Positions 22,636 through 43,473 of a DNA stretch of 64,000 nt are shown here, piece after piece. The first letter of the stretch is position 1; every line of letters begins with the position of its first letter. The notes beneath the pieces were generated by a model. It worked only from the letters and a program-made list of their open reading frames with translations. It had not been told where the DNA came from and did no database searches. This DNA comes from a virus (Duplodnaviria; Caudoviricetes): IMG/VR virus record IMGVR_UViG_3300044247_000057, positions 13,887-77,886 of that record. One strand, written 5' to 3'. The position numbers and the translations under genes were made by a program.

Positions 22636-24465
22636 ATGTCGACTGAGTACGTGAACCCACCGGCAGGCGGGTATCCGGAGATCATTGACGTCGCCGTGGA
22701 CGGCGAAGCCAAGAAGATCCCGGTCGGTCCGCCCTTTGTCGAGCTCGGTGGCACCGGCCTGAAGCGGTCCACCGGAGTCATCGACGAGGAGTTCCTGCCC
22801 GCGCTACGCGGGACCAAGGGCGTCAAGGTCTTCACCGAGATGTCGCAGAACGATGCGACCATCGGTGCTCTGCTCTTCACCATCGAGAAGCTGCTGCGTG
22901 AGGTCACCTGGACGGTGGTGGGGGACGACTCCTCCCCCGAGCAGGCGAAGGCGGTGCAGTTCGTCGAGGAGTGCATCGACGACATGTCCCACAGCTTCGA
23001 CGACCTGGTGGCGGAGATCCTGAGCATGCTCCCCTATGGGTGGAGCTGGCACGAGATCGTCTACAAGAAGCGCATCGGTCCCTGGGAGAACGACGGGCGA
23101 AGGCGCAGCAAGTTCACGGACGGCAAGATCGGCTGGCGCAAGATGCCGATCAGGGCCCAGGAGACGCTGCATCGCTGGCTGTTCGACGACACGGGTGGCA
23201 TCAAGGGCATGGTGCAGATCCCGGCCCCCACCTACACCCAGCGCACGCTGAGCATCGAGCGGTGCCTGCTGTTCCGCACGGGCGCGCACAAGGGCAACCC
23301 CGAGGGTCGCTCCATCCTGCGCAACGCCTACCGGCCCTGGTTCTTCAAGAAGCGGCTGGAGGAGTTCGAGGCCATCGGTGTGGAGCGTGACCTGGCCGGT
23401 CTACCCTTCGCCAAGGTCCCCAGCCAGATCATGAAGCCGGACGCGACGCCGCAGCAGAAGCAGCTGTTCACGGCGTTCAAGCGCCTGGTGAGCAACGTCC
23501 GAAGGGACGAGCACGACGGTGTGGTCATCCCCTCGGACGTGGACCCGGACACCAAGACGCCAGAGTACGACTTCCAGCTGTTGAGCTCGGGTGGTGGCAA
23601 GACCTTCGACACCAACGCCCTGATCGAGCGGTACAGCACCGAGATATTGATGACCGTGCTGGCCGACTTCATCAAGGTTGGTCACCAGGGAACGGGCTCC
23701 TACGCCCTCCATGTGGACAAGACGGGCATCTTCCGGGCCGCGCTGAACAGCATCGCCCAGGGCATCGCGGACGTGTTCAACCGCCATGCCATCCCCCGGC
23801 TGTTCGCCATGAACCAGTGGAAGCTGGACAAGCTCCCCCGGATCGAGCCCAGCAACGTCGACCCGCCCAACCTGGCTGAGCTGGGTGCCTTCATGCAGAC
23901 CATGGCCGGACTGGGGATGACCTTCTTCCCGGACCCGGACCTGGAGAAGTTCCTGCGCGAGGCCTCGCACCTGCCCGATCTCCCCCAGGAGGTGGAGGAG
24001 ATGCGGCGGGAGGAGGCCGACATGCAGAACGCCATGGCCTTCGAGGGCGCGAAGCAGAAGCAGCAGATGGTGGCCGAGGGGATGACCCCGGAGCAGGCTG
24101 AGATGCAGGCCCAGGCCCCCACACCCGAGATGCAGGAGCAGGAGCAGGCCGGGGCCATGCAGCAGCAGGAGATGGATGCCCAGGGCAAGCAGATGGACAT
24201 GGACATCAAGGGCCGCGACGCCGAGCTGAAGATGCAGGGCCAGAAGCAGGGTCTGGAGATCGACGGCAAGTCCAAGCGGCAGGCCCTGGAGCACGACCGC
24301 AGGGCCAAGGATCTGGAACACCGGCACAACAAGCGGTCCAAGGACCTGGAGTACACCCACAAGAAGCGCATCAGTGAGCTGAGCATCCGGGAGAAGAAGG
24401 AAGCCATGAAGCAGCGGCCCAAGGCGAACGAGCCCAAGAAGACCTTCCCGAAGAAGAAGAAGTGA
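22636..24465 (+). CDS. Portal protein with Q/M-rich and basic coiled C-terminal extension
   Basis: ELGGTGL...LRGTKG..F.EM..ND..IG, LPYGWSWHEIVYK, GNPEGRSILRNAYRPW, AIGVERDLAGLP; GGAGGA RBS. Confidence 0.9.
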   Translation: MSTEYVNPPAGGYPEIIDVAVDGEAKKIPVGPPFVELGGTGLKRSTGVIDEEFLPALRGTKGVKVFTEMSQNDATIGALLFTIEKLLREVTWTVVGDDSSPEQAKAVQFVEECIDDMSHSFDDLVAEILSMLPYGWSWHEIVYKKRIGPWENDGRRRSKFTDGKIGWRKMPIRAQETLHRWLFDDTGGIKGMVQIPAPTYTQRTLSIERCLLFRTGAHKGNPEGRSILRNAYRPWFFKKRLEEFEAIGVERDLAGLPFAKVPSQIMKPDATPQQKQLFTAFKRLVSNVRRDEHDGVVIPSDVDPDTKTPEYDFQLLSSGGGKTFDTNALIERYSTEILMTVLADFIKVGHQGTGSYALHVDKTGIFRAALNSIAQGIADVFNRHAIPRLFAMNQWKLDKLPRIEPSNVDPPNLAELGAFMQTMAGLGMTFFPDPDLEKFLREASHLPDLPQEVEEMRREEADMQNAMAFEGAKQKQQMVAEGMTPEQAEMQAQAPTPEMQEQEQAGAMQQQEMDAQGKQMDMDIKGRDAELKMQGQKQGLEIDGKSKRQALEHDRRAKDLEHRHNKRSKDLEYTHKKRISELSIREKKEAMKQRPKANEPKKTFPKKKK

Positions 24466-25508
24466 GCACCGCCGACATCCTGCGACAGCAGGGGGTGGAC
24501 GTCCGGCTGGTGATGAAGGCGGCCAGGGACGACAACCAGCACAAGCGTGCTGGCGGTGGTGCCATGGTCGGGGCAGGCGGCGTCGCTGCTGCCGGTGGCT
24601 TCGCTGGTGGCGGGGTTCCGGGACTGAAGTCGGACCGTCTGCTGATGGACGTCACGGGTGCGGCCAACCGGCGCGAGAAGGTGAAGATGGCTGCGCGGGC
24701 GTACAAGGGCGGGGAGTTCGGCTACCGGACCAACGCCCACCACACGCACCAGGCCTTCAACCTCAGCGATACCAAGGCTGCTCCCGATGCTTCTCGGGTT
24801 GCTCATCTCAAAGCCGCCCACAACGCCGGACAGAGTGCTGCCGAGACCAAGATCATCCGGCACCTGAAGGTGGCCCGGAAGGGGTCGCACGCTGCCCTGG
24901 TGGGTGGTGCCGGTCTGACCGCCCTGGGTGTGCACCGCATCCGGCAGGCGAAGAAAAACAAGGCACAGCCGGTCTCCAAGGCGGAGAAGAAGGGTGACAC
25001 CGCCTTCGGTGCCGCCCTGGGTGCCGGTGCTGCGACGGCTGGGGTCAGTGTGGGTGGTGCCCGGGCGCTGGAGCACCACGGGCGCAAGTGGTCCCGCTCA
25101 GCTGCTGCTGACCTGGATGAGGCGCACAAGATCATCCCGAACTCGGGCGGGCACAAGGTCAACCCCTTCCCGGGCAAGACGAACCCCCGGGTGCCCGACA
25201 TCGGCCCGGAGAAGGGCGAGTCGAAGGTCTGGCGGGACCCGAAGATCCTGGCGGGGAAGTCCAAGGCCCAGGCCGCGAAGGTGGGAGAGCTGCGCGGGAA
25301 CGCCATGAAGAGCCGCTACTTCGCCGGGGTGTACGGGAAGATGGGTGGAGCTGTTCGCCGCATCCGTAACCCTGCCATCGGGGTGGCCACGGTGGGTGCG
25401 GGCGGTCTGGCGGTGACCCATCACAAGAAGAAGGACAAGGTCGCCAAGTCCCTGTTCGAGCTCCGTGTGGAGTCGATGCACCCAAAAGCACAGTCAGCAA
25501 GGGGGTAG
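24462..25508 (+). CDS. Basic Gly/Ala-rich modular head-region protein A (N-terminal part of a possible frameshift fusion)
   Basis: Four G/A-rich hydrophobic segments, each next to a K/R cluster; LVMK|A, VSK|A and VAK|S motifs. Confidence 0.75.
   Translation: MSTADILRQQGVDVRLVMKAARDDNQHKRAGGGAMVGAGGVAAAGGFAGGGVPGLKSDRLLMDVTGAANRREKVKMAARAYKGGEFGYRTNAHHTHQAFNLSDTKAAPDASRVAHLKAAHNAGQSAAETKIIRHLKVARKGSHAALVGGAGLTALGVHRIRQAKKNKAQPVSKAEKKGDTAFGAALGAGAATAGVSVGGARALEHHGRKWSRSAAADLDEAHKIIPNSGGHKVNPFPGKTNPRVPDIGPEKGESKVWRDPKILAGKSKAQAAKVGELRGNAMKSRYFAGVYGKMGGAVRRIRNPAIGVATVGAGGLAVTHHKKKDKVAKSLFELRVESMHPKAQSARG
25481..25487 (+). other. Candidate -1 ribosomal frameshift site C CCA AAA
   Basis: In-frame XXXYYYZ heptamer; hairpin GCAAGG/CCTTGC begins 9 nt downstream; the -1 frame is open to 26896 and has no ATG/GTG/TTG between 25370 and 25574. 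Confidence 0.6.
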
Positions 25509-26896
25509 GCCTTGCGGGTCTGGTCGAGAACGCTGCCACCGCCACCGCTGGCAGCGTAGGCCTCAGTGAAGCCGTGCGGCGGAAGCGGCGGCGCAAGCGG
25601 GCCAAGGTCGCCAAGTCCTTCATCAACGGCAAGTTCGTCCGGGCCGTCGATCTGGGTGCCAAGCAGAAGCACAAGATCCGGACGGTGAACCAGTACGCCC
25701 AGTCCAAGGGCGCTCTGGGCAACCGCTCCGACCCCGTGCTGTCGGGCTACCGGAAGAAGATCGAGACCGAGGCAGGTCCCTTGCGGGAAGCCTTCAAGAC
25801 CGGCGACCAGGCCAAGCTGGCTGAGTTCGGCGAAAAGGCTGGTTTCGACGCCTTCGCCCACCGGATGGGGGGCAAGGGCGGCGGCAAGTCCATGGTTCAC
25901 ATCACGCCCAAGAACGAGTACAAGGAGAAGTTCGTCAGCCAGTCGATGGGTGAGAAGTCCCACGGCCACCTCGGCAGACACGAGGCCGCGCACGCCTCGA
26001 CGAAACGATCCGAGTACCGGTTGCACGGTCAGATCCCGGCCAGCATGAAAAAGCACGGTCGGGAGGAGGGGCGGGCCGACTTCATCGCCAGTGGTCACTA
26101 CAGGGGCGCTGGACACAAGCCCACGGAGTTGGGTGAGGCACCTTCCGGCTACTCCAATGCCGTCCAGCAGTGGGAGAAGCCTGGGTTCAAGAAGAAGACC
26201 ATCCCTGAGGCGCGCAAAGCCCACGTGGAAGCGGGTGCTTCGTCCAAGGAGTTCGACCGGACCATCAAGGGTCAGAACAACTGGAACAAGGGCTACCGCC
26301 AGGTGCACGAGAAGATGCAGGCGGCCAAGACCGCCCGCACCGTCAAGCCCCAGGTCGCTCCCAGGCCGGTGGCCGAGCCTGCCCCCACTCCCGCACGGCC
26401 CGCGTACATCCCCGGACCAGGACCTCAGACCGCTCCCAAGCCAGGTCGGTTCAAGCGGATCTTCAGCCGCAAGGACCGGGTGGGCAAGGCCTACACAGTG
26501 AGGAAGGCAGACATGGAGTTCCCGATGAAGGGGGAGATCGCCAAGATGCTCCCCACCATGGCTGAGAGGAAGCTCATGGTGGCGGATAACAAGCTGCGGC
26601 GGGCTGCCGACAAGGTGACCCAGAAGGCCCACTTCAAGGCCCAGAAGACGGCGCAGAAGACAGCGCTCGGCACCACGAGGCAGATGACCAGGGACTTCAA
26701 GGCTGCCAATCCGGGGAGGAAGACGACGGCGCAGTTGCAGGAGCACCACGACGCCGTGAAGGCGGTGCGCGATCAGCACTGGGCCCAGAAGCAGTCCGGG
26801 ATCATCGCCCACAACAAGCGCCCGGGGAAGATGCGCAGCCAGTGGGCTGGAGACCCCAACCTGCCCGGCACGCGCACCACGATGTTCGGTGGCTGA
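25487..26896 (+). CDS. Head-region protein B (-1 frame of A) with HExxH zincin-like motif; the track annotates only 25574-26896
   Basis: The -1 frame reads STVSK|GVGLAGLVENAATATAGSVGLSEAVRRKRRRKRAKVAK|SFING...; it contains HEAAH and EEGRAD. Confidence 0.65.
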   Translation, partial: STVSKGVGLAGLVENAATATAGSVGLSEAVRRKRRRKRAKVAKSFINGKFVRAVDLGAKQKHKIRTVNQYAQSKGALGNRSDPVLSGYRKKIETEAGPLREAFKTGDQAKLAEFGEKAGFDAFAHRMGGKGGGKSMVHITPKNEYKEKFVSQSMGEKSHGHLGRHEAAHASTKRSEYRLHGQIPASMKKHGREEGRADFIASGHYRGAGHKPTELGEAPSGYSNAVQQWEKPGFKKKTIPEARKAHVEAGASSKEFDRTIKGQNNWNKGYRQVHEKMQAAKTARTVKPQVAPRPVAEPAPTPARPAYIPGPGPQTAPKPGRFKRIFSRKDRVGKAYTVRKADMEFPMKGEIAKMLPTMAERKLMVADNKLRRAADKVTQKAHFKAQKTAQKTALGTTRQMTRDFKAANPGRKTTAQLQEHHDAVKAVRDQHWAQKQSGIIAHNKRPGKMRSQWAGDPNLPGTRTTMFGG

Positions 26897-27753
26897 TGCC
26901 CGACGCAGATCTGACCTTCCGAGTGGGCCTGAAGGTCAACCAGATGCCTAAGACCAACCTGCTGCAGAACGCCGTCTACGAGTCCATCGACCGCAAGTGG
27001 TACCTGTGTCAAGCCCAGGACGCGGGAGCTCGGGACCGGGAGCACAGCATGATCCGGCGCTTCTCCCGCACGGGCACGTTCGAGGGCACCACCAAGTGCG
27101 AGCTGTTCGGCCACGGCAACCAGATCGGGGTGCGCAAGTCAGCCGCAGGCAACGTCTGGATCTGGGTGCCGATGGACTCTTACAACGGCTCCGGTCACAC
27201 CACCAGCACCAAGCCTGCTCGGGTCGTCTTCGAGAAGGGCTCTACCCGGGTGCGCAAGGAGTCGGCGGTGGTCGACATCTATGACGGTGGGCTGGCTAAC
27301 CAGGGCTTCGGGCTGTCGGCGGAGAACCCCGGCATCCTCTACCTGCGGAAGGGCCACTCCGGCTCCGAGACCTACCGGATGGTGGACGAGGAGGCCTACC
27401 GCAAGGGCAACGGCAAGTCCAAGGTGTACGGCGAGGTCGAGGTCTCCAAACACAACCGGGGGAAGTACTTCCAGGGCTGTGGGGCAGGCGGGGACACTCT
27501 GGCCGTGCTGTCCGGCTCCACTGGTCACAACCAGTACATCGACGTCTACAGCTTCGAGAAGCGCAAGAAGCTGACCCGGCTGACCATCCCGATAAGCCAG
27601 ATCTACCGCTGCCTGAAGAGCGGTGGAGCCACCTACAGCAGTGCCGAGGCCGAGGGCCTGCAGTTCATCGACGGTGCCCTGTACATGGGTGCCCGCTCGG
27701 GCCCACCGGGGAAGAAGCGCGACTTCTCCATCATGGAGGTGTCCGGATGGTGA
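26896..27753 (+). CDS. TagC / P68-RBP-like beta-propeller protein
   Basis: FGHGNQIG, VWIWV, QGCG, SSAEAEGL; TGATG-coupled start at 26896. Confidence 0.6.
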   Translation: MPDADLTFRVGLKVNQMPKTNLLQNAVYESIDRKWYLCQAQDAGARDREHSMIRRFSRTGTFEGTTKCELFGHGNQIGVRKSAAGNVWIWVPMDSYNGSGHTTSTKPARVVFEKGSTRVRKESAVVDIYDGGLANQGFGLSAENPGILYLRKGHSGSETYRMVDEEAYRKGNGKSKVYGEVEVSKHNRGKYFQGCGAGGDTLAVLSGSTGHNQYIDVYSFEKRKKLTRLTIPISQIYRCLKSGGATYSSAEAEGLQFIDGALYMGARSGPPGKKRDFSIMEVSGW

Positions 27754-27932: not shown

Positions 27933-27959
27933 CCCGGGGGCTCCGACAAGGAGAACCCA

Positions 27960-29084
27960 ATGCTCAGAGCCCTGGTGATCGCTGTCCTCTTCCTGTTCAT
28001 GGGAGGCAGCGCCGCCCAGGCTCAGCCTCCTCGACCTGGTCTGTGCACCGGTCTGACGGGGGACGCACTGACCAAGTGCCTGTACTCCGACACCGACGAC
28101 CGGCTCAGGGCTCTCGGGTCTGTCCCCACCACTGCGCCCACCTCGCCCACGACTGCGCCCACCACAGTCGCACCCACCACTGCTCCGCCGACGACCGCAC
28201 CACCAGCCTCTGGTGACTGGCTGAGCGGGGCCAGCGGTACGGAGGCAGCCAACGGCACCTTCGGCACCTGGCGGGGCACTCCTGTCGAGATCGCCACCTT
28301 CTGGATCAACGACCCGGCCCTCTACCCCATCGGACCCAAGATCTCCGGCTGTGGGGGCTGCGGGGAGTGGGCTGGGTTCAACGGCCCGGTCAGCATCAGC
28401 TCCTCACCCGCCAACTGGCAGGGCTGGTCCGCTGAGGCCAACGGTGCCAACGACACCTTCTGGACCGCTGTGGCGCGCAAGGCGAAGGAGCTGCGTACAG
28501 GCAAGGGGCAGGTCTACATCAACCCCTACTACGAGTTCAACGGGGACTGGATGCCGTACTCGGTGGCTCGTACCACCCAGGGGCAGACCGACTTCCGGAA
28601 CGCCTTCGCCCGCACCTCGGCCATCCTGCGACGGGAGTTCCCGGGTGTGAAGGTCGTCATCAACCCCGGTGCCGGACGCACGGTGCCGGATGCCATGTGG
28701 CCCGCCAAGGACGCCTTCGACGTGGTAGGGATCGACACGTACAACGAGTGGCCATGGTGCGGGACAGCCTCCTGCCAGGGCACCCAGATCGCCCGGATCG
28801 AGACCTTGCGGCTGCAGGCAGCTGCGCGGGGGAAGCCGATCTCGTTCCCGGAGTGGGGCAACTCCTCCGTCGCCTCCTCTGCGGGTGGCGGAGGAGACAG
28901 TCCCGCCTTCATCGACGCCTTCCACACCTACCTGCGCGACCACGCGGGTACGGGCGCGGGGCAGGTGGTGTACGAGACCTACTTCAACGTGGGTGGCTAC
29001 GACGCTCACTACGAGCTCTACCTCAACGGCGCAGTCAACATTCGCCAGCCACAGACGGCGGCTCAGTACCGAGCGAGGTTCTGA
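27960..29084 (+). CDS. Secreted glycoside hydrolase, GH26-like (clan GH-A)
   Basis: Signal peptide ending AQA, Pro/Thr linker, YYEFNGDW (acid/base), DVVGIDTYN, KPISFPEWG (nucleophile); AAGGAG RBS. Confidence 0.8.
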   Translation: MLRALVIAVLFLFMGGSAAQAQPPRPGLCTGLTGDALTKCLYSDTDDRLRALGSVPTTAPTSPTTAPTTVAPTTAPPTTAPPASGDWLSGASGTEAANGTFGTWRGTPVEIATFWINDPALYPIGPKISGCGGCGEWAGFNGPVSISSSPANWQGWSAEANGANDTFWTAVARKAKELRTGKGQVYINPYYEFNGDWMPYSVARTTQGQTDFRNAFARTSAILRREFPGVKVVINPGAGRTVPDAMWPAKDAFDVVGIDTYNEWPWCGTASCQGTQIARIETLRLQAAARGKPISFPEWGNSSVASSAGGGGDSPAFIDAFHTYLRDHAGTGAGQVVYETYFNVGGYDAHYELYLNGAVNIRQPQTAAQYRARF

Positions 29085-29110
29085 CCGAGACAGTTCCGGG
29101 AGAATGAGGT

Positions 29111-29689
29111 ATGCCTTGGGAACAAACCGGCAGTGGCTACAAGACGAGTCGTGGTGGCTTCGTCAAGAACCCCGCTCAGTACGAGAAGCTGCGGGGCAAG
29201 GGCATGTCCAAGGAACGAGCGGCACGGATCGTCAACAAGGAGCTGAGGATGAAGGATCCCATCGAGATCATGAAGGCTGATGCTCTCTGGCGTCGTGACG
29301 ACGAGGACATCGAGAAGGGCATCTTCGGTGGTCTGGCCCAGGGGCTGAAGCGCACCCAGGCCATCGGTCCGATGCAGCGCGGCACTCAGGCTGGCTTCAA
29401 CGCCGGTACTGCTATCCGCAGCGCGGGCAGCAAGGTCGCGGGTGCGTTCAGGCGGACTGGTGGTCAGGTGAAGGCCGGTGCCCAGACCGCCCACGGTCCA
29501 CTGCCTGCCACTGCCCCCACGGCCACCAAGGTCGGACAGCAGGCTGCACGCGCCCCGGGTCGTCTGGTGGCGGCAGTCAAGGAGCGTCCCAAGACGGCCA
29601 TCGGCGTAGGCGCTGCCACAGCCGGGCTTGCTGGTGGCGGTGCCTACACGGCTGGGCGCACCCACAAGAAGCGGACAGGTCGTCCCTGA
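29111..29689 (+). CDS. Modular head-region protein C
   Basis: N-terminal KNPAQYEKLRGKGMSKERAARI; IMK|A and IEK|G; G/A-rich helix followed by HKKR. Confidence 0.75.
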   Translation: MPWEQTGSGYKTSRGGFVKNPAQYEKLRGKGMSKERAARIVNKELRMKDPIEIMKADALWRRDDEDIEKGIFGGLAQGLKRTQAIGPMQRGTQAGFNAGTAIRSAGSKVAGAFRRTGGQVKAGAQTAHGPLPATAPTATKVGQQAARAPGRLVAAVKERPKTAIGVGAATAGLAGGGAYTAGRTHKKRTGRP

Positions 29690-29690
29690 G

Positions 29691-30566
29691 ATGTACGGGC
29701 TGGTCTCCAAGGCTGACCTGGCGCGCAGCCAGTGGGCCGACGTGAGCAAGAACCTGGTGGAGTTCCAGAATCCGGGCAGGTCCAAGAAGCAGCGGGCCAC
29801 CGAGGCAGCTGGAGCGACGGTCGCCACAGGCGGGGCCACTGCCGCCGTGGGTGGTCTGCTGTCCCGCAGACGCGCTCTCGGGCTGGCAGGTAAGTCTGAG
29901 GAGGCAATCAAGCAGCCGAGGATGCAGATGGTCGCCCGCGCCGAGCACACTGCTCGTGCGGGGGCCGAGAGGCTGCATGCTGCCCGAGCAGGAAAGGCCT
30001 CCAAGATCGGGGCAGGGGTGACCGCTGTCGGTCTGGGTGGACTGGCCTACAGCCAGAGGGGCAAGCGGAAGAAGGTCGAGTTCGGCAAGGCCCTCACCAA
30101 GAAGGAGAGGGAGGACCGGAAGGGTCCTCAGCTCCCCAAGAACCCGGTGGTGACCGGAGGCCTGGGACTGGGTGCGGCAGGAGCTGGTCTCTTCGGCGCT
30201 ACCCGTCCGGTGTACTGGAACCAGCGGAAGAAGTCCGTAGCAGCAGAGGGTGTCTCCTCGGCGGCCTGGAAGGAGGCCAAGGGCCATCAGGCAGCTGGTC
30301 ATGAGGCTCAGAAGCTCTCGCAGAAGCGCAAGAGCACGACGTCTCCAGGGGATGCCCTGAGGCACTTTGCGGCCCATGACGAAGCTCTGGGCAGGGCCCA
30401 GAAGTACTCCACCATGTCCACCGACGCCAAGGCCGGTGCGCTGAAGACCGCCAAGCTCGGACGCAAGGGACTGATCGGTGCGGTCGGAGGAGCGACCGCT
30501 GTGGGTGCTGGGCTGGGCTACGACAAGTACCAGAAGCGCAAGGCGCGCCAGGCTGAGCAGATGTGA
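29691..30566 (+). CDS. Modular head-region protein D
   Basis: MYGLVSK|A, VSK|N, FGK|A; four G/A-rich hydrophobic segments with basic flanks. Confidence 0.75.
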   Translation: MYGLVSKADLARSQWADVSKNLVEFQNPGRSKKQRATEAAGATVATGGATAAVGGLLSRRRALGLAGKSEEAIKQPRMQMVARAEHTARAGAERLHAARAGKASKIGAGVTAVGLGGLAYSQRGKRKKVEFGKALTKKEREDRKGPQLPKNPVVTGGLGLGAAGAGLFGATRPVYWNQRKKSVAAEGVSSAAWKEAKGHQAAGHEAQKLSQKRKSTTSPGDALRHFAAHDEALGRAQKYSTMSTDAKAGALKTAKLGRKGLIGAVGGATAVGAGLGYDKYQKRKARQAEQM

Positions 30567-30808
30567 CCAGGAAGCAGAAGGTTCGACAGTTCCCGACCAA
30601 GGACGAGGCCTACGCCCTGGGTCGGAATGCCCAACGGCTGATGCCCGGGAACAAGGGCAAGGTGATCAACGCCGGGTTGACGATGGCAGAGGAGACGAAC
30701 AAGCGACTCATCCCCATCGTCGTCCAGAAGGACTCTCCTGCCGGACCCGATGTCGGTACGTTGAAGGCCTTGCGAGTAGTGAGGAGAAAGAAGCGTGCCC
30801 GCAGCTGA
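30563..30808 (+). CDS. Small basic protein
   Basis: GTGA-coupled; K/R-rich ends. Confidence 0.55.
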   Translation: MTRKQKVRQFPTKDEAYALGRNAQRLMPGNKGKVINAGLTMAEETNKRLIPIVVQKDSPAGPDVGTLKALRVVRRKKRARS

Positions 30809-33530: not shown

Positions 33531-33537
33531 GAGCGAC

Positions 33538-35988: not shown

Positions 35989-36016
35989 CCAAGGACGGGA
36001 GAATGACCCCATGGAC
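35983..36016 (+). repeat. Shared 34-nt intergenic/start element, copy 1
   Basis: GAGTAG-n9-GGAGAATGA-n-CCCATGGAC; 27 of 34 positions identical to 40898-40931 with no gaps. Confidence 0.7.
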
Positions 36017-38821
36017 TTCAACCGCAATGTGGCTGACTGGGTGTACGGGCTGGTCTCCAAGATGGACGACGGTGAAGCCCGCATGTTCACGGTCTTCCTG
36101 GCCGAGGACCTGTACCAGACCGATCTGAAGAACAACGCCAAGCTGGTCGAGCGCACCCGTGCCTCGGTCGAGAAGGCGATGACCGACGAGCTGGCCAACG
36201 ACTTCCTGTTCCGACTGGAGCGTGGGGTCAACCCCGAGCAGCTGGTGGCTGAGGCCGCAGCGGTGGCTATCGCCAAGGCCGACGATTACGAGGCCTGGAA
36301 GTTCCAGACCCGTGAACACGGGCGCTGGGCCAAGATGGGTCCCGGCTACTGGAAGGCCCAGAAGAAGGCCATCAAGGCTGAGGGTGACTACGCCAAGCAA
36401 GCGGCGATGATGTCTGCGATGCGCTTTCATCACGGTGACCAGATCAAAGCCATGGGCGAGGATCTGGGCCCCCAGGTGCATGGCGTCCAGCAGCAGTGGA
36501 ACAAACGCTCCACGGGTCAGTCCGGAGCCACGGACACCTTCAACCGGATCACCGCAGCTGGTCGGACGACAGCCCTCGTAGGTGTGGCCACCGACCAGCC
36601 CAACGTCTACGCGGCTGGTCAGGCTGCCTCCCTGGTGGGTCAGTTCGGGCCCGAGGCAGAGAAGGTCGTCGGTCCTGCCGTACGCCGCACTGCGTACCGG
36701 TACCGGGGCACTGAGACGAAGCCGCAGACCAAGGAGATCAAGGCGGCGGCCAACAACCGTGCTCGGGAGCTGTTCCCCACTGAACGGGACAAGAAGGGCG
36801 TTCCGACCGGTCAAGGGATGGCTCCGCTGGCCGATCTGAAGTCCGGTGCTGCGCGTCCGGAGAACGTGGACCGACTGGACGAGAGCAAGCGGGACTTCGT
36901 CCTGCAGATGGGTGCCGCCGACCATCTGGCCACCAAGATCCCCTCGCTCGCCCTGGCCAACCTGCAGGTCAAGTCCGGCAAGATCCCGCCCTCTGAGGGC
37001 GTCATCATCAACGGCGATGGCCAGGTGACCGCGCAGGCGGTGGGTTTCGCCGAGGACCATTACCTCCCCTTCAACCTGCGCAACCTGGGTGAGCTCAACG
37101 GTGGGCGCTACGTGCGTACGCGCACGACCGGTGGTCCGACGTCGGAGGACATCCACGCGGCCACGCTGGCTGGTGCCCGGTCCTTCACAGTGGTCTCCCG
37201 CTCCGGTGAGTTCACCGTCGACTTCGCTGACGACTTCCGGGGTGCCCGTCGCCACTCGGACAAGGCGATGGGGATGCAGAAGCAGTACGAGCAGCTGCTG
37301 GACGCGGTGAAGTCCAAGCAGGTGGAGAAGCTGCCCACGTCCGCCCGGGAGCGTGCTGAGGTCCGGGAGGAGCTGGAGGACGAGATCGAGCGGCTGAAGA
37401 GCGACCCAGCCTCTGGCTTCGACTACCAGACCTACACCGACAAGATGTTCAACGAGGAGCTGAACCGGCGACTGACCCAGCGTCGGCAGAACCCGAAGCT
37501 GACTTCTGAGGAGATCACGCGGATCGACGAGTTCGCCTGGAACGGCCTGAACAGGCAAGCTCCCACCGACCGGGAGAAGGTCGAGCACGACAAGGCGGTC
37601 AAGCAGCTCTCCCGTCGCGTGCTGCGGGAGAAGGGCAACCAGAACTTCAAGCTGGACGGCGACGGCTACAAGGCGGCTCTGGAGGCGCTGAAGGAGCAGT
37701 ACCCATACTTCATCGCTGACATCCGGGTGCGCTCCGCTGGCGACGCGCCGGAGGACTTTGGCGACGGCACCGACCAGGGCTACGTCAAGCCCCGGCACAT
37801 CCGGGCCGAGGCAGCTCAGGCTGGGTACTTCGGTGTCGGTATCGAGGGTGCTACGAGCACCAAGCGGTCGGCGGAGAACCTGCACTACCAGAACTGGGGT
37901 GTGCGGCAGAACATGAAGACCGCAGCGCCGCAGGGTACCGAGCAGACCGAGGAGGAGAGGGACACCAACCCCTCCACCATCCCGGCCACTCCCCAGCCAG
38001 GCCAGACCCCTGCGGTCACCGCCGTGGGTGGAGGAGGAGCCACCTCAACGGCTACCTCTCCGCAGGAGCACGCTCAGGCGGGAGAGAGGGCATCCCGGGT
38101 CCAGACTGCCGAGATCGAGCGGGACAACTCTGTCTACCAGGCGGCGCACTACTGGGCTGACCGGCTACCGCCGAAGGACAGTCCCTCCTACGCCTACATC
38201 CCGGCTGAGGCCAAGATCCTGGATGAGCTGCGAGATGCTTCCGATCCCAAGTCGTTCACCGACAGGAACCGGGAAGCGATCAAGCGGGCTGTCGCTCACA
38301 TCTCTGCCGCCCCCGAGAGCCGTACGGCGCTGGCCGGGGCACCGAAGATCGTGGACAACGTAGAGGAGGTCAAGCGTGCGGTGGCCGCCAACCGCCCGGT
38401 CTCCCTCACTCCCCAGCCACTGACCCAGGACGACATGCGGATTCTGCACGAGCGAGGTCTGATCAAGCACACCGCCATCCTGGGTGGAGGGACGCTGCAG
38501 GATGAGGGTCCGGACACCAAGGACCTGTCCGACGACAGGCTGCGACAGAAGATCATGGCCTGGCAGGGGCAGCATGACCGGGAGACCAGCCCGGTGGAGC
38601 GAGCCAAGATCAGGGAGAACCAGCTCGACTACAACCGGCTGCTGGCCTTCCGCAAGCACAAGCTGGAGCGGGGTCGGGCGAACAACACCCCGTTCTCTCC
38701 CGCTGGCGGTCCGCCGCCGACCACGACTCCTCCGCCCACGGGATCGTTGCCGCCCGGTGCCGGGTCCAACACCTACAACCCGAACAGCAACGTCCGCGAC
38801 TTCCGGCGTAGGAGCGCCTAG
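36011..38821 (+). CDS. Large head-region protein with degenerate JAB/MPN-like domain
   Basis: YGLVSK|M, IAK|A, QTREHGRW; SEGVIIN...G...VRTRTTGGPTSEDI...FTVVS..GEF. Confidence 0.7.
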   Translation: MDFNRNVADWVYGLVSKMDDGEARMFTVFLAEDLYQTDLKNNAKLVERTRASVEKAMTDELANDFLFRLERGVNPEQLVAEAAAVAIAKADDYEAWKFQTREHGRWAKMGPGYWKAQKKAIKAEGDYAKQAAMMSAMRFHHGDQIKAMGEDLGPQVHGVQQQWNKRSTGQSGATDTFNRITAAGRTTALVGVATDQPNVYAAGQAASLVGQFGPEAEKVVGPAVRRTAYRYRGTETKPQTKEIKAAANNRARELFPTERDKKGVPTGQGMAPLADLKSGAARPENVDRLDESKRDFVLQMGAADHLATKIPSLALANLQVKSGKIPPSEGVIINGDGQVTAQAVGFAEDHYLPFNLRNLGELNGGRYVRTRTTGGPTSEDIHAATLAGARSFTVVSRSGEFTVDFADDFRGARRHSDKAMGMQKQYEQLLDAVKSKQVEKLPTSARERAEVREELEDEIERLKSDPASGFDYQTYTDKMFNEELNRRLTQRRQNPKLTSEEITRIDEFAWNGLNRQAPTDREKVEHDKAVKQLSRRVLREKGNQNFKLDGDGYKAALEALKEQYPYFIADIRVRSAGDAPEDFGDGTDQGYVKPRHIRAEAAQAGYFGVGIEGATSTKRSAENLHYQNWGVRQNMKTAAPQGTEQTEEERDTNPSTIPATPQPGQTPAVTAVGGGGATSTATSPQEHAQAGERASRVQTAEIERDNSVYQAAHYWADRLPPKDSPSYAYIPAEAKILDELRDASDPKSFTDRNREAIKRAVAHISAAPESRTALAGAPKIVDNVEEVKRAVAANRPVSLTPQPLTQDDMRILHERGLIKHTAILGGGTLQDEGPDTKDLSDDRLRQKIMAWQGQHDRETSPVERAKIRENQLDYNRLLAFRKHKLERGRANNTPFSPAGGPPPTTTPPPTGSLPPGAGSNTYNPNSNVRDFRRRSA

Positions 38822-38824
38822 CCG

Positions 38825-40903
38825 ATGGCCACTCCGCATCCGGAGAGCAGGTTCAAGGGGTTGCTCCTCTCTCCGGAAGAGGCCGCTGCGGTCGCCGGGA
38901 TACGTGCCCGCATGCCAGTCGGAGTGCGGTCGGTCGGTCTGGCCCTGTCGGCGGTCTTCTCGCTCTACCGCTGGATCATGCAGCGTCGGCTGAAGGACGT
39001 TCAAGGAACGACTCCGGCGCTGATGGAGCAGGCCCTGCTGCTCGGGCTCCGGGAGTCCTTCATCGCCTTCCAGCCCACCCTGACGTCGATGACCACGCCG
39101 ATCATGTACGCGGGCTATCTGGTCGGTGTGCAGGAGTCCGGGGTGAGGCTGCCTCAGCATGTGCTGGCGCAGATGGCCAACGGCTACGCCCCGAGCCTGG
39201 GGAACTACATCCACACCGTCAGCAGCGACGCCCTGCTGGCAGGCTTCCGGGCCCTGGTGAACCGCAAGGTCGACCACAGACGTGCCCTGAAGCTGACCAC
39301 CGACGCCTACGGGGTCGACACCCGGACCATGAACACGCTGGTCAACGTGTGGACCGCCGAGGAGGCCAAGGGCTTCACCAACGTGCGGCAGATCGTCTCG
39401 GTCAAGGAGAAGCGGGCCGCCACGATCATCGCTCAGAAGGTCAAGGAGCGGGCCCACATCCTGGGTGCGCACGAGGCCTGGAACGCCAAGGAGCAGGCCA
39501 AGGAGGCGTCCTGGCTGTGGGCGATGGAGAACGGGATCATCACCGGGGCGGCTCGCAAGATGTGGGTGACCGCCGATGACGAGCGGGTCTGTGCCTCCTG
39601 TGGCCCCCTGGACAAGGTCCAGATCAAGGTGACCGACAGGTTCGAGACCACCGTGGGCAAGACGCTGACCCCGCCGCTGCACGTCGGCTGCCGGTGCGAG
39701 GTCACGCTGAGCGCCAGCATGCGTCGGATCCTGCTGGGACAGCTCCGCAGGAAGCCGGTGAGGAAGGCCTACGAGGGGCACCCCTGGGCCCGGAACCAGA
39801 AGCGCAACGAGGAAGGTGAGTGGGTCAAGGGCCCCAGCAGCGCCCATGGTCAGCCCCAGCCCGCGCTGGCACCACAGCCGGTGTACGACCCGGAACCACC
39901 AGAGCCCCCGCCGTCCGCTCCGGTGGAGGAGGAGTACATCGCCTTCGGGCCTCAGTACATCGCCTTCGCTCCACAGCCTGCTGAGCCGATTCAGTTCGGG
40001 CCACCACCACAGCAGGCGTCCCCTGCTCCCGCTACTCCACACATCGAGTTTCAGCCTCGACCCGAGGCGATCCAGTTCGCCCCGCCACCTGCGCAGTCCA
40101 TCGAGTTCAAACCACACACGACGCCGTTCTCGCACGCCACCTACACCCCGTCCCAGGCGACGCCGCAGCCGGTGGCTCCGCGCCCGAAGGAGCGGCAGCG
40201 GTTCGAGGAAGAGCAGTGGAAGCCGCCCAAGCCGAGCATCATCACCCTGGACCGGGGCGAAGAGGTCTACGGCGTGGTGCCGGACGACTTGGACCACGTC
40301 GAGGACTACGAGCTCGACCAGAATCGGATGGTCAACGACTTCGCCGACGCGCACGAAATGGTCGAGAACCAGTTGGCTGAGAACTACACCGAACGCATCT
40401 ACGACGCTCTGGAGGAGGAGGGGAAGGACCTGGTCCCCATCTACTCCGAAGGTGGCGAGCAGTACTACGCCGACTACGAGGGCCTCCGGTCACTGTTCGA
40501 GTGGACCAGGGCCAAGCAGATCTACGAGGACCGGAAATCGTCGGGGATGCCGGAGTACATGGATCCACCAGTGTCCTTCGACCCGATGCAGGAGATCCAG
40601 GTTCACTCCAACTACGACAACAGGGCGCACCAGATCGAAGCCGAGGTGTTGTCCCGCAAGGGTCGGCTCCGGGGTCAGGCCATTGATGACGTGATCGAGG
40701 AGATCACACCGTCGTTGGTCAAGGTCGACCGGATCGACATGGAGTTCAGTACCGAGGACCTGGGCTTGAACCGCAGAGACCACCCTGACTGGATTGTCAC
40801 TGGTCCCCACCACAACATCGAGGTTCTCGGCTCGATCACCGACCCCGAGACCGGTCAACGGATCCTGGCTCACGCCTACCATCTCGACCCCTTCGACGAG
40901 TAG
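38825..40903 (+). CDS. MuF / SPP1 gp7-like minor head protein with C-terminal extension
   Basis: KMWVTADDERVCASCGPLD...PPLHVGCRC; then VRK|A, a Pro-rich linker and an acidic domain. Confidence 0.85.
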   Translation: MATPHPESRFKGLLLSPEEAAAVAGIRARMPVGVRSVGLALSAVFSLYRWIMQRRLKDVQGTTPALMEQALLLGLRESFIAFQPTLTSMTTPIMYAGYLVGVQESGVRLPQHVLAQMANGYAPSLGNYIHTVSSDALLAGFRALVNRKVDHRRALKLTTDAYGVDTRTMNTLVNVWTAEEAKGFTNVRQIVSVKEKRAATIIAQKVKERAHILGAHEAWNAKEQAKEASWLWAMENGIITGAARKMWVTADDERVCASCGPLDKVQIKVTDRFETTVGKTLTPPLHVGCRCEVTLSASMRRILLGQLRRKPVRKAYEGHPWARNQKRNEEGEWVKGPSSAHGQPQPALAPQPVYDPEPPEPPPSAPVEEEYIAFGPQYIAFAPQPAEPIQFGPPPQQASPAPATPHIEFQPRPEAIQFAPPPAQSIEFKPHTTPFSHATYTPSQATPQPVAPRPKERQRFEEEQWKPPKPSIITLDRGEEVYGVVPDDLDHVEDYELDQNRMVNDFADAHEMVENQLAENYTERIYDALEEEGKDLVPIYSEGGEQYYADYEGLRSLFEWTRAKQIYEDRKSSGMPEYMDPPVSFDPMQEIQVHSNYDNRAHQIEAEVLSRKGRLRGQAIDDVIEEITPSLVKVDRIDMEFSTEDLGLNRRDHPDWIVTGPHHNIEVLGSITDPETGQRILAHAYHLDPFDE

Positions 40904-40931
40904 ACGCGCAAAGGAGAATGAACCCATGGAC
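40898..40931 (+). repeat. Shared 34-nt intergenic/start element, copy 2
   Basis: See 35983-36016. Confidence 0.7.
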
Positions 40932-41846
40932 GTGGTCAAGGCACTGCAGGAGCACAGCGAGGCTGGTGCCACCATCGTCGACCTGCTCTACGGGGACGCG
41001 GGCGCAGAGGTCTCCAAGGCGCTGATCGAGTTCGGCAAGGAAGAGAAGAAGAAGGACACCCAGAAGCGGATCGCCCAGGTCTCCAACCTGGTCGGTATCG
41101 GAGCCGGTGCGGCAGCCGTCCCCGGTGCCTTCAAGCAGCTCGGTGAGGCGCACCGGAAGTACTACAAGCGCCCCGAGAAGCCGAAGAACACCACCCAGAC
41201 CCGCAAGCTGATCGCCACCGCCAAGCACGGGACGGGGATCAAGCGCGTGGGAGCCAAGGGTGTGCTGAAGGCGCGCAAGCTCTACCGCAACCCCAAGGTC
41301 GTCCTGGGACTGGCTGGTGCTGGTGCTGGGCTACAGGTGGGCAACCTGGCGGGCGACACCATCACCAACCAGGTGCTGAACCGGAAAGAGAAGAAGGCCG
41401 GTGCGACGCCACCGCCCAAGGAGTTCGGCAAGACGGAGTTCGACATCTACACCGAGATCTCCAAGGTCGACTCCGACAAGCGTCAGGTCTTCGGCTGGGC
41501 CTCCGTGACCAAGTCCGGTGGCATCGACGTGGTCGATCTCCAGGGTGACGTGATCCCACTGGAGGAGATCGAGAAGGCCGCTTATGAGTTCGTCAAGAAG
41601 TCCCGGGTCGGCGGCAAGATGCACGGCAAGGGCGAGGCCGGACCGATCCAGGTCTCCGACATGATCGAGTCCTTCGTGGTCACCCCGGAGAAGAAGGCGG
41701 CCATGGGCCTCCCGGACGAGACGCCGGAAGGCTGGTGGGTCGGCTTCAAGGTGAACGACGACAACACCTGGGCCGAGGCCAAGGACGGCAAGCTGGCCGG
41801 TTTCAGCGTCCACGGGAGCGGGCGGAGGGTCCCGACTGATGCCTAG
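40926..41846 (+). CDS. Prohead protease (XkdF / S78-type) with N-terminal cargo-like module
   Basis: EISKVDSDKRQVFGWAS, DLQGD...EEIEKAAY.F, MHGK, IES, GWWVGFK...W, GFSVHG. Start ATG 40926. Confidence 0.85.
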   Translation: MDVVKALQEHSEAGATIVDLLYGDAGAEVSKALIEFGKEEKKKDTQKRIAQVSNLVGIGAGAAAVPGAFKQLGEAHRKYYKRPEKPKNTTQTRKLIATAKHGTGIKRVGAKGVLKARKLYRNPKVVLGLAGAGAGLQVGNLAGDTITNQVLNRKEKKAGATPPPKEFGKTEFDIYTEISKVDSDKRQVFGWASVTKSGGIDVVDLQGDVIPLEEIEKAAYEFVKKSRVGGKMHGKGEAGPIQVSDMIESFVVTPEKKAAMGLPDETPEGWWVGFKVNDDNTWAEAKDGKLAGFSVHGSGRRVPTDA

Positions 41847-42600
41847 CCTGATCACGCTGGAGAGCATCGAGAAGAAGGAGTGGAGCGAAGAGCAGCTGGC
41901 GCGTCGCAAGAAGCTTGGCGCTGCCGGTTCCATCGCCACCTCCACCCTGGGCCTTGGTTCCCTGGGCGTTCTGGCTCTGCGCTCGAAGCCAGCTGGGAGG
42001 GCGATCAAAGAGATCGGAGAGCATGCTCCCAAGGCGGAGATGTTTGCCGGTAAGAAGGTAGGCCATGCGGTCGGAGCAACGGGCGGACGGCTGGAGAAGA
42101 TCAGAGCAGCAGTGAAGGGCGCGGAGACCCCGATCCTGGCCACCAGCGCCGGGATCGGTGGACTGAACGGCTACAACTTCGCTGCCATCCAGCGTCAGGA
42201 GAGCAAGAAGTCGAAGAGACACAACGCGGAGTACGCCGATCTGAGGAGCAAGGTCAACCGGCTGGACGCGAAGGTGAACAAGCTCTACGACCCCGAGGAA
42301 GAGCGGCACAAGCAGAACAAGATCGCTGCCGGGGTGCTCGCAGCCGGTGGGGCCGGGTCCATTGCTGCCGCCGTTCCCCAGGCTCAACAGGCCCTGCATC
42401 AGAAGGGTCGGATCAAGAACCTGAAGACCAAGGCGGCCAAGGCGCGGGCCGGACGGATCAGGAACGTGAAGGGTGGCAAGGCGGCTCTGCTCGCACTGGG
42501 TGGCGCTGGGGCCATCGGCGGCGGCGTGAAGCTCGCCACCAACGAGCGAAGCAGGCGCGGGAAGACCTACTCAGCGGCGTACCGGCCCCAGTACTACTGA
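41839..42600 (+). CDS. Modular head-region protein I
   Basis: Two modules of paired G/A-rich helices; IEK|K and VNK|L; YDPEEER motif. Confidence 0.75.
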   Translation: MPSLITLESIEKKEWSEEQLARRKKLGAAGSIATSTLGLGSLGVLALRSKPAGRAIKEIGEHAPKAEMFAGKKVGHAVGATGGRLEKIRAAVKGAETPILATSAGIGGLNGYNFAAIQRQESKKSKRHNAEYADLRSKVNRLDAKVNKLYDPEEERHKQNKIAAGVLAAGGAGSIAAAVPQAQQALHQKGRIKNLKTKAAKARAGRIRNVKGGKAALLALGGAGAIGGGVKLATNERSRRGKTYSAAYRPQYY

Positions 42601-42639
42601 GGCACCATCGTTGCCACCCTCGACATAATAGGGACTGAA

Positions 42640-43473
42640 ATGCCGAACAGATTGAGCGACATGATCTTCGACGAGGTGAGCCTCGTCTACAAGGGCGCGA
42701 ACCAGCACTCGCGGGTCGCCATCGCCAAGTCTGCTGACGGCGTCGAACAGGAGGAAGCCATGGGATACACCGATCAGGATGGGAACCCCGTCGACGTCAA
42801 CAGCCTCGCAGAGGGCGATGTTGTCTTCGATGAGGACGGGCAGGGGTTCGTCTACACCGAGCAGGACGTGGACGAGATCGAGGTCGAGGAGTACGAGGAA
42901 GAGCCCCAGCTGGTGGGCAAGAGCTTCCCGACCCGACAGACGTACGCGCAGGACCCGGACTTCGAGCAGGACGTGCGGTGGAGCCTCTCCAAGGCCGTCA
43001 CCGACGAGGACCGCGACGAGGTCATCTCCAAGGCCGCTGGCTACATCTCGCACCTGGAGAGCCTGGTCCACAAGGCGCAGGCCGATGTCGAGGTCGAGCG
43101 GGAGATTCGCCGCGAGTCCGAGTACATGGAGATCGCCAAGTCCTACGGGGGTCTCCCGGTGGGCGAGGAGCAGCTCGCGGCAGCCCTGATGGACTGCGCG
43201 GACAACCTCGACGAGTCCAGCATCGTGACTCTGCAGAAGTGCCTCTCGGCAGCCAGTGACTCGGCTCTCAACGAGATCGGTGCCACGGGCGGCGGATTCA
43301 ACTCCGACGTGATGGCGGTCATCGAGCAGCACGCCAACTCCGGGGTCTCCAAGAGTGAGGACTCCTCCACGGAGGCCGAGATCGCCAAGGCCTTCGAGCA
43401 GGACCCGTCCTTGTACGCGCAGTACCTCAACGAGACCGGTGGCTACAACAGCGCACCGCGTTACAACTTCTGA
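42640..43473 (+). CDS. Capsid scaffolding protein with N-terminal protease-like strand
   Basis: Acidic and helical, just before the capsid genes; begins DEVSLVYKGAN; all 10 Lys are in [VIL]-x-K-[SAGC]. Confidence 0.8.
   Translation: MPNRLSDMIFDEVSLVYKGANQHSRVAIAKSADGVEQEEAMGYTDQDGNPVDVNSLAEGDVVFDEDGQGFVYTEQDVDEIEVEEYEEEPQLVGKSFPTRQTYAQDPDFEQDVRWSLSKAVTDEDRDEVISKAAGYISHLESLVHKAQADVEVEREIRRESEYMEIAKSYGGLPVGEEQLAAALMDCADNLDESSIVTLQKCLSAASDSALNEIGATGGGFNSDVMAVIEQHANSGVSKSEDSSTEAEIAKAFEQDPSLYAQYLNETGGYNSAPRYNF

Follow-up and report, generated by a model that had tools for sequence, protein, structure and literature searches.

The stretch of DNA analysed here, which we call the window, comprises 64,000 nucleotides (bases 13887-77886) of IMG/VR record IMGVR_UViG_3300044247_000057, a 77.9-kb virus of the Caudoviricetes that is rated 97% complete and classed as a provirus. 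Six open reading frames (ORFs) of its head module encode cationic proteins with Gly/Ala-rich hydrophobic segments: ORF 24462, the -1 frame ORF at 25487, ORF 29111, ORF 29691, the N-terminal half of the prohead protease (ORF 40926) and ORF 41839. We give an even chance to the reading that these are internal head proteins, packaged and then processed by the protease much as in T4, but in a siphovirus. Two elements of this reading are supported by sequence comparison: the protease-linked, polyprotein-like design of the six ORFs, and the hydrophobic-x-Lys|small motif at the joints of these proteins, a context in which all lysines of the scaffold are found as well. A preliminary description of this DNA had interpreted the same ORFs as polyproteins cut into many membrane-active peptides. 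Comparative evidence upholds their membership of the protease/scaffold unit and their modular, polyprotein-like construction, but not the notion of many peptides, as the predicted products are mostly ~80-160 residues long; nothing in the analysis speaks for the host intoxication that was also suggested.

The Gly/Ala-rich hydrophobic stretches reported in that description are real. A scan of the ~65 ORFs of the window for uncharged stretches of at least 14 residues found ~16 segments of 14-23 residues in the six head-module ORFs. All six are on the + strand. ORF 24462 (24462..25508; 348 amino acids (aa), 18% Lys+Arg) and ORF 29691 (29691..30566; 291 aa) have four segments each, ORF 41839 (41839..42600; 253 aa, net charge +28) three to four, the N-terminal half of the protease two, ORF 29111 (29111..29689; 192 aa) one or two, and the -1 frame at 25487 one. 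Elsewhere in the window, the tape measure contains 2-5 comparable stretches, and weaker, Ser/Thr-rich ones are found in a 2040-aa ORF and in ORF 36011. When hydrophobicity is taken over 19 residues, ~12-13 of the segments lie above a loose threshold. Clusters of Lys and Arg are present as claimed, with 2-6 of these residues within 12 positions on either side of each segment, and the six proteins contain 18-21% Lys+Arg and 30% Gly+Ala. The N/R-P cap can be recognized as [RK]-[NKP]-P in front of four segments. The count of about nine modules with a regular layout also holds, provided that the count includes the conserved mid site of ORF 41839, V-x-K148: each consists of a site, 0-20 polar residues, a first segment, ~60-100 residues, a second segment and a basic cluster, followed by the next site. 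The likeness of the modules is one of composition and architecture, not of sequence homology. BLASTP among the six proteins gave E values of 0.008 or worse, and hhalign of the two halves of ORF 24462 returned a probability of 2% and aligned just the Gly/Ala stretch. The similarity of the modules is thus not one of sequence, and their interpretation as paralogues was rejected at the detection level of these comparisons.

The assignment of ORF 40926 as the prohead protease is firm. Pfam Peptidase_S78_2 matches at 41454..41825 on the + strand (E 4.2e-18; 66 bits vs a cut-off of 24) over profile positions 4-123 of 126, the match being confined to the C-terminal 124 residues, and PHROG families of head maturation proteases also match this ORF. 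This XkdF-type serine protease domain is ~97% conserved among the relatives of the window, which are few and metagenomic (L004, 93% identity; L005 and L007, 73%; L006 and L008, 63%; L009; L010; and two loci in metagenome-assembled genomes (MAGs), L016 and L017). The N-terminal half (40926..41453, + strand) begins with a conserved leader region (residues 1-38, containing V-V-K|A, V-S-K|A and F-G-K|E), continues with the two Gly/Ala segments and closes with E-F-G-K|T. In four homologues both ends of this half are invariant, including E-F-G-K|T just before the XkdF domain, while the middle is divergent and contains insertions and deletions.

The passenger differs or is absent between lineages, which argues that the N-terminal part is a lineage-specific passenger on a conserved protease. 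In L016 a single 718-aa ORF, directly upstream of the scaffold gene, has the XkdF domain at residues 9-135 (Pfam E 2.4e-19) and four Gly/Ala segments in its C-terminal part. In the window, L006, L007 and L009, a Gly/Ala protein is encoded by a separate gene between protease and scaffold. L017 has two Gly/Ala genes (781 and 233 aa) upstream of the scaffold gene with a 118-aa ORF intervening; no protease was located at this locus, and the 233-aa protein matches ORF 41839 weakly (58% probability, E 1e-4). The Arthrobacter phages Kovu (gene 20, L003 8957-10090) and Ottawa (gene 87, L012 6142-7281) have genes annotated as 'RNA ligase' that encode a 2H phosphoesterase (Pfam 2_5_RNA_ligase2, E 2.8e-12) followed by a C-terminal XkdF domain. 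Passenger and protease meet there at L-T-K|A or I-T-K|S, and the leader ends in F-V-K|A or F-A-K|G. Being fused to the protease, this 2H phosphoesterase might be packaged. Among the 2H phosphoesterases are phage enzymes that break down the cyclic nucleotides used as immune signals. The gene that occupies the protease position in Roseobacter phage RDJL Phi 1 encodes 132 aa and is annotated 'DNA methyltransferase', which is the label of the PHROG best matched by the protease of the window. Judged by its length, position and PHROG label, we take it to be a bare protease without a passenger.

An independent clue to the specificity of the protease comes from the acidic scaffolding protein (42640..43473, + strand; 277 aa). 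All of its 10 lysines lie in [VIL]-x-K-[SAGC], for which the binomial P, given the composition of the protein, is 7.8e-14. The pattern is retained in three relatives, and in the divergent scaffold of L009 the strict motif still accounts for 7 of 17 lysines (P 1e-6), with three more preceded by Phe at the first position. Degradation of the scaffold by the prohead protease is established biology, and in HK97 itself the capsid precursor is cleaved between Lys and Ser by a protease of the HK97 family. Taken together with the scaffold motif, this makes hydrophobic-x-Lys|small the likely specificity of the XkdF-type enzyme. A separate feature of the scaffold is its N-terminus (42640-42720), where D-E-V-S-L-V-Y-K-G-A-N resembles the last strand of HK97-type proteases. 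The protease of the window ends shortly after G-F-S-V-H-G and that of Kovu with L-E-V-D-L-D-G-A-P-A-N, and the scaffolds of Kovu, ValentiniPuff, L009, L016 and L017 start with a similar motif resembling the last strand. Possibly protease and scaffold descend from a single gene that was interrupted by the insertion of ORF 41839.

The same motif recurs at the joints of the Gly/Ala proteins, where its lysine is unusually well conserved. Six homologues share the conserved core domain of ORF 24462, and in the alignment of this family (7 sequences, ~40% identity) the single invariant lysine of 32 is K173, in V-S-K|A; V171 is invariant too. In the family of the zincin-like domain encoded in the -1 frame (16 sequences, ~30% identity), the best conserved of 26 lysines is that in [VI]-x-K|S. 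When four families are pooled, lysine conservation is 0.92 in the motif and 0.55 elsewhere (Mann-Whitney p=0.0016), a signal that is due in part to the protease domain, which hardly varies; the real weight lies with the two divergent families. Homologues of the protease, of ORF 41839 and of ORF 36011 have invariant leaders of 5-19 residues that end in [VILF]-x-K, and such leaders also occur in the zincin-like family.

ORF 41839, which overlaps the stop of the protease gene by 8 nt, has a 12-residue leader ending in I-E-K that is invariant in seven homologues (62-92% identity). Its mid site, V-x-K148 followed by Y-D-P-E, is invariant as well; Ala or Ser follows the lysine in most homologues, and the L017 protein has V-A-K|S at this place. 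In relatives the building blocks are joined in other combinations. The ORF 24462 domain is fused in frame to the zincin-like domain at V-x-K-S in P0015 and P0021, and in P0024 it is joined to an ORF 41839-like module at V-H-K-S. ORF 41839 is homologous to the C-terminal half of P0024 and P0025 (hhalign 98%, E 1e-13), and the starts of these two proteins approximately coincide with a V-x-K|A site of longer homologues. P0025, the related 610-aa ORF of L009, sits exactly between protease and scaffold. The called frame of P0025 (L009 10001-11833) is apparently wrong over ~70 residues, and an alternative frame ends in S-A-F-G-V-E-H and a stop; the locus may consist of two genes or contain sequencing errors.

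The remaining Gly/Ala ORFs follow the same plan. ORF 29691 has a 7-residue leader ending in V-S-K|A and a mid site, F-G-K|A. Its homologue in L008 (P0017) is 735 aa long and has ~10 segments, and the V-S-K|A-D-L with which the protein of the window begins is internal there. The number of modules therefore changes quickly between relatives, and the start of the ORF coincides with the motif. ORF 29111 consists of an N-terminal DUF7218 domain, I-E-K|G, a Gly-rich hydrophobic stretch, a C-terminal Gly/Ala segment and a basic tail. ORF 36011 (36011..38821, + strand; 936 aa, no known family) was not on the list of the preliminary description and is a candidate for an additional substrate. Its leader of 17 residues ends in L-V-S-K|M-D-D, of which L, K and M-D-D are invariant in four homologues, and its homologues in L009 and L010 carry an extra module (Gly/Ala segment, basic cluster and V-S-K) before the leader motif.

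The zincin-like domain is encoded beyond a break in the reading frame. ORF 24462 stops 21 nt past C_CCA_AAA (25481..25487, + strand), a heptamer that is in phase with the ORF and is a candidate -1 frameshift site. As first described, the -1 frame at 25487 (25487..26896, + strand) encodes a further Gly/Ala segment; this is followed by an Arg/Lys cluster, V-A-K|S, the zincin-like domain and a basic tail. The frame is open from 25370 and has no start codon before GTG 25574, leaving a start-less stretch of 87 nt. This stretch encodes a second copy of K-V-A-K-S, and both copies align with the single junction of the relatives. Contigs from two other soil samples (2018 and 2025, from separate studies) cover 25398-25652 with substitutions and zero indels. 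Since these independent samples share the break, it is real in the DNA, and an assembly error was rejected as its cause. An in-phase X_XXY_YYZ heptamer, an open downstream frame and in-frame fusions in P0015 and P0021 make it plausible that programmed -1 frameshifting joins ORF 24462 to the zincin-like ORF. The folding energy of the RNA at 25481-25575 (-35.8 kcal/mol, z = -0.31 vs shuffles) does not support a stimulatory structure, and the G+C content at third codon positions of the 87-nt bridge gives no frame signal. Alternatively, the gene is split and the second ORF begins at GTG 25574.

The zincin-like domain itself (~25595-26353, + strand) contains HExxH and REExRAD. A full HMMER search with ORF 25574 found 29 proteins among 1.8 billion representative proteins. 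The family occurs in head modules of phages, and HExxH, two Arg, a Gln and R-E-E-x-R-A-D are invariant in the 16 aligned members of the family. The family belongs to no Pfam or PHROG family, one member matching SprT-like with E 5e-4. An AlphaFold2 model of the domain has a pLDDT of 72; Foldseek found no match to it at E <= 0.001, and the best VIA-align Z was 5.0, the weak rows including zinc peptidases (BlaR1 with Z 4.5, M3, M32, M1 and M9). The zincin-like assignment is made by motif only. Stand-alone members of ~250 aa begin with the leader M-x-S-A-F-G-V-[DE]-H-G-x-I-S-K, followed by S-F-V-N-G-K-F, and the same leader, M-x-S-A-F-G-[VI]-[DE]-H-G-x-I-S-K, is found on the unrelated small Gly/Ala proteins of L009 and L010 (leader loci: L009 14727 and 15074-15430; L010 1110-2264; L011 1141-1971). 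A related S-A-F-G-I-D-H stands at the C-termini of P0024 and P0025; the window itself has no S-A-F-G-type leader motif. A stand-alone member is encoded two genes 5' of a Mu-type portal gene, with a 119-aa Gly/Ala ORF intervening. In P0026 the zincin-like domain comes first and the Gly/Ala modules after it, and P0027 contains a tandem pair of zincin-like domains that meet at V-K-K|S.

Cuts at the strict motif define the predicted pieces. ORF 24462 would yield a leader (residues 1-19) and modules of 154 and 156 residues (20-173 and 174-329), ORF 29691 modules of 126 and 158 residues, and ORF 29111 a module of 123 residues, each carrying a net charge of +15 to +18. Two pieces, one of 84 residues (net +14) and one of 81 (net +6), would come from the N-terminal half of the protease, and further predicted pieces are a 38-residue Gly/Ala peptide (net +8) and a zincin-like piece of 291 residues. 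ORF 41839 would fall into two modules of ~136 and ~105 residues if its I-E-K leader and V-x-K148 sites, both of which lie outside the strict motif, were cut.

In the mechanism that we propose, the cationic modular proteins would be accessory components of the procapsid interior, taken up alongside the scaffold and the XkdF-type protease, with one module travelling as part of the protease polypeptide and another being encoded by the gene between protease and scaffold. The protease would then cut at hydrophobic-x-Lys|small junctions, remove N-terminal leaders of 5-19 residues, separate modules of mostly ~80-160 residues with net charges of +6 to +18, and free the zincin-like domain. Because every scaffold lysine lies in the putative cleavage context, the scaffold would be cut to pieces of ~45 residues or fewer that are able to leave the shell. 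The Gly/Ala proteins have few sites each, so their fragments would be too large to leave; they would stay with the DNA, most likely neutralising its charge, and may exit with it at infection. The simplest reading is that the scaffold is made for clearance and the Gly/Ala proteins for trimming and retention. T4 internal proteins and the inner-body proteins of phiKZ and SPN3US are trimmed and retained in this way (PMC9026906, PMC10052503).

Several observations weigh against packaging and processing of these proteins. The preliminary description proposed to test the six ORFs for enrichment of the [VILF]-x-K-[SAG] motif. We counted 17 occurrences in them, where shuffled sequences predict 11.4 (p=0.06); a similar modest excess is seen in the rest of the genome (44 vs 33 expected). 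The motif takes up 8.3% of the lysines in the six ORFs and 9.3% of those in the tape measure, and with no per-lysine excess over the tape measure the enrichment argument fails by the test that the preliminary description had set; the idea that motif enrichment proves cleavage was rejected. A rule trained on the scaffold alone gave a weak signal, with 16 sites vs 9.9 expected in the six ORFs (p=0.047); the tape measure had 9 vs 6.9. The conserved V-x-K-S that opens the zincin-like domain is predicted to be part of a beta-hairpin and could therefore be conserved for folding. ORFs 24462, 29111 and 29691 sit among genes resembling those of tail and receptor-binding proteins, so that their location by itself does not link them to the head, and the Gly/Ala proteins match none of the virion-protein families in Pfam or PHROG. 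The C-terminal part of the L016 protein was rejected as a homologue of ORF 41839 (hhalign E 0.16) and is analogous only. In the literature we found no published cleavage specificity for XkdF-type proteases, and the support for packaging and processing consists of sequence comparison in an uncultured phage.

If the proteins are packaged and cut, the fragments could act on the host membrane and not on the DNA, the Gly/Ala segments inserting after ejection to form or assist a channel for DNA, in the manner proposed for podovirus ejection proteins and for hydrophobic segments of tape measures. The segments are suited to this: 14-23 residues in length and free of charge, they contain many small residues and have Lys/Arg on either flank, and they equal those of the phage's own tape measure in composition, length and crude hydrophobicity. 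The putative cuts V-S-K|G-V-G-L and I-E-K|G-I-F-G-G would expose a Gly-rich hydrophobic N-terminus, recalling cleavage-activated viral fusion peptides, and some zincin-like relatives end with a Gly/Ala segment and a Lys tail that resemble a tail anchor. However, a position-independent Hessa sum, taken over 19 residues as a crude estimate of insertion free energy, gives +3 to +7 kcal/mol for the segments, vs about -0.5 kcal/mol for the classical membrane helices of this genome (ORFs 20015 and 21087), and their Kyte-Doolittle 19-mer means are 1.0-1.7 vs 2.0-2.3. An AlphaFold2 model of ORF 24462, which was not used further, has a mean pLDDT of 52 and values below 50 across all Gly/Ala segments. 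There is no Pfam or PHROG match to the ejection proteins of P22 (gp7/16/20) or T7 (gp14-16), the tape measure already serves the task in a siphovirus, and the idea presupposes the proposed packaging and cleavage. We consider a membrane-active role unlikely. Neutralisation of DNA charge is at least as likely a function as membrane penetration, and is favoured because the fragments carry net charges of mostly +14 to +18.

Two further explanations would keep the proteins out of the mature virion. They could be accessories of the core or scaffold that build or size the procapsid core for a larger head and are then degraded and expelled. Such a role would agree with the location of genes within the protease-scaffold unit, with leaders that are highly conserved on variable bodies as in T4 core proteins, and with the length of the record, 77.9 kb vs 58-69 kb for relatives with 37-43% identical capsid proteins. 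It is made distinctly unlikely by the low proportion of lysines in a site (~8%, against 10/10 in the scaffold), since fragments of ~80-160 residues are large for exit through capsid pores, by the tendency that strongly cationic proteins would have to remain bound to DNA, and by the change from 4 to 10 modules between close relatives, which is ill-fitting for size determination. The other possibility, which we regard as very unlikely, is that the proteins are never packaged and reside in the host membrane as anchors of procapsid assembly or as exclusion or lysis-related proteins, the V-x-K motifs being incidental or structural. Repeated hydrophobic segments with flanking positive charges are what annotators usually label 'membrane protein', the motif is not enriched in the six ORFs, and T4 proheads form on the inner membrane, from which they detach after gp21 cleavage (PMC9026906). 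Against a membrane location, the proteins have no signal peptide, the segments are too polar for translocon insertion on the crude scale, and proteins fused to either end of the protease, or to a zincin-like domain that is soluble, are hard to reconcile with a polytopic membrane protein. Among the lysines, moreover, only those at the junctions are invariant.

Internal head proteins that are processed by a protease are well known from T4, from P1 and from giant myoviruses of the phiKZ type; to our knowledge they have barely been described in siphoviruses, and we know of little study of the XkdF protease family, widespread as it is. The internal proteins of T4 are basic and have 10-residue capsid-targeting leaders that are removed by gp21, a homologue of other prohead proteases (PMC9026906, PMC10052503). 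Like T4 IPI-III and Alt, the proteins described here are small, basic and encoded with head genes (PMC9026906). In both cases a short N-terminal leader (10 residues in IPIII, 5-19 here) ends in a hydrophobic-x-charged sequence before the cut (a predicted one in the present case), leaders are conserved and bodies variable, and a leader-like motif is present on the protease itself. Diverse cargo can be loaded by fusion in T4 (PMC9026906), as would be the case here. Unlike in T4, the putative P1 residue of the cleavage site is Lys and not Glu, the protease is of the XkdF type and not gp21, and the virus, a siphovirus, has a capsid protein like lambda E. The putative cargo comprises several modules in a polyprotein-like arrangement, is in part fused to the protease, has no sequence homology to that of T4, and is known here from sequence alone.

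In phiKZ and SPN3US the proteases remove propeptides at S/A-x-E (PMC9026906, PMC10052503). The proposed resemblance to their inner-body and ejection proteins, which gp175 and gp245 cleave, lies in many head proteins losing N-terminal propeptides at a three-residue motif, paralogous families that expand and contract, and cleaved products that associate with DNA (PMC10052503, PMC9026906). Those phages differ in being giant myoviruses with propeptides of up to 254 residues cut at S/A-x-E, whereas the present record has 78 kb, a motif ending in Lys and cationic Gly/Ala modules. The Dar proteins of phage P1 are large and small head-packaged proteins with an N-terminal localisation signal, and at least DarA is thought to be processed (PMC9024508). 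P1, however, is a myovirus whose Dar proteins are anti-restriction factors, with no homology to the proteins of the window and no Gly/Ala modules. Searches of Pfam and PHROG and tblastn of 50,697 phage records revealed no sequence homology to internal proteins of T4, phiKZ or P1.

Some looser parallels bear on single features. Tape measures such as T5 Pb2 carry hydrophobic Gly/Ala segments; unlike the segments of these tail proteins, those of the head module are flanked by far denser Lys/Arg clusters. Adenovirus pVII and pre-mu are highly basic precursors that are cut in the capsid by the viral protease and whose products stay on the DNA. The comparison is an analogy only, adenovirus being a eukaryotic virus with an unrelated protease and core proteins without hydrophobic segments. 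Encapsulin cargo-loading peptides are short terminal motifs on unrelated cargo of an HK97-fold shell and are not removed by a protease. The S-A-F-G-[VI]-[DE]-H motif, which relatives carry at N-termini and P0024 and P0025 at C-termini, is a candidate for a signal of that kind.

If the six ORFs do encode packaged and processed proteins, a lineage of soil phages would load much cationic Gly/Ala protein and an uncharacterised zincin-like enzyme into its heads by means of a simple packaging code, namely a hydrophobic residue, any residue, Lys and a small residue. This would amount to a specificity prediction for the XkdF family and would make packaged cargo predictable from sequence. The cultivable Arthrobacter phages, in which a 2H phosphoesterase is fused to an XkdF-type protease via a similar junction motif, would provide a testable case. 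A wider version of the proposal is possible, though we lean against it: siphoviruses with a Mu-type portal, MuF and XkdF may have a general cargo system, in which short terminal leaders ending in hydrophobic-x-Lys, or fusion to the protease, would load passengers that Lys-specific cuts would free for delivery with the DNA. The passengers would then be the cationic Gly/Ala modules, the new zincin-like enzyme and, in Arthrobacter phages, the 2H phosphoesterase. Such a system would extend T4-type internal-protein biology, possibly with anti-defence cargo, to ordinary long-tailed phages and would offer a programmable packaging tag for cultivable actinophages.

The window has a G+C content of 64%, and nearly all genes between 1 and 60 kb are on its + strand. 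The head module is bordered on the left by a Mu-type portal gene (22636..24465, + strand; Pfam Portal_Mu, E 2.8e-37) and on the right by the gene for the major capsid protein (MCP; 43922..44938, + strand). The MCP matches Pfam Phage_cap_E weakly; tblastn matched it to 195 phage records annotated as MCP, with a best identity of 43%. Its closest cultured relatives, phages of Pseudomonas, Rhizobium, Arthrobacter, Microbacterium and Roseobacter, are merely 37-43% identical. In front of the protease lies a gene for a MuF-like minor head protein (38825..40903, + strand; 692 aa; Pfam Phage_Mu_F, E 2.8e-7), and a cement-like protein is encoded from 43497, between scaffold and MCP. The order MuF, protease, ORF 41839, scaffold, cement, MCP is kept in L006 and L007, and in L009 with the fused 610-aa ORF in place of ORF 41839. 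The tail genes, including that of the 2250-aa tape measure, lie 3' of the MCP gene. Both a tape measure and a tail tube protein are encoded, and with no sheath gene in evidence the gene set is consistent with a siphovirus. The best matches among bacterial assemblies were a Microlunatus MAG and a MAG labelled Bacteroidetes; an actinobacterium is a plausible host, which these matches do not establish.

The Gly/Ala proteins have few relatives in the databases searched. Megablast of the head module gave no match, nor did tblastn of ORFs 24462 and 41839 against the 50,697 phage records. For ORFs 24462, 25574, 29691 and 41839, neither Pfam nor PHROG offered a family when E values as high as 5 were allowed, nor did the PDB offer a matching sequence, and an ESM Atlas search with ORF 41839 returned just unnamed viral clusters with a score of 0.80, which is the chance level. 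A word-index search for homologues found six for ORF 41839, five longer forms for ORF 24462, and for ORF 25574 only itself.

Between the portal and MuF genes, the Gly/Ala ORFs alternate with genes of other kinds. The -1 frame ORF is followed by a propeller-domain protein (26842-27753), ORF 27960, ORF 29111, ORF 29691 (together 27960-30566) and a small basic ORF at 30563. A 911-aa collagen-like protein, an M23 peptidase and a second propeller protein come next (30795-35794), before ORF 36011. This is an unusual location for genes resembling those of tail fibres (propellers, collagen-like and M23). The two propeller proteins, which resemble receptor-binding proteins, are paralogues, and the second shares an N-terminal stretch with the M23 peptidase. 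ORF 27960 (27960-29084) encodes 374 aa with a classical signal peptide and has no family match; since the relative L008 has nothing equivalent in this place, it is probably an inserted accessory gene. Upstream of the head module, the 2040-aa ORF (10725-16847) has a low Lys+Arg content, and small ORFs at 20015-21407 and 22067-22417, just 5' of the portal gene, encode classical hydrophobic helices.

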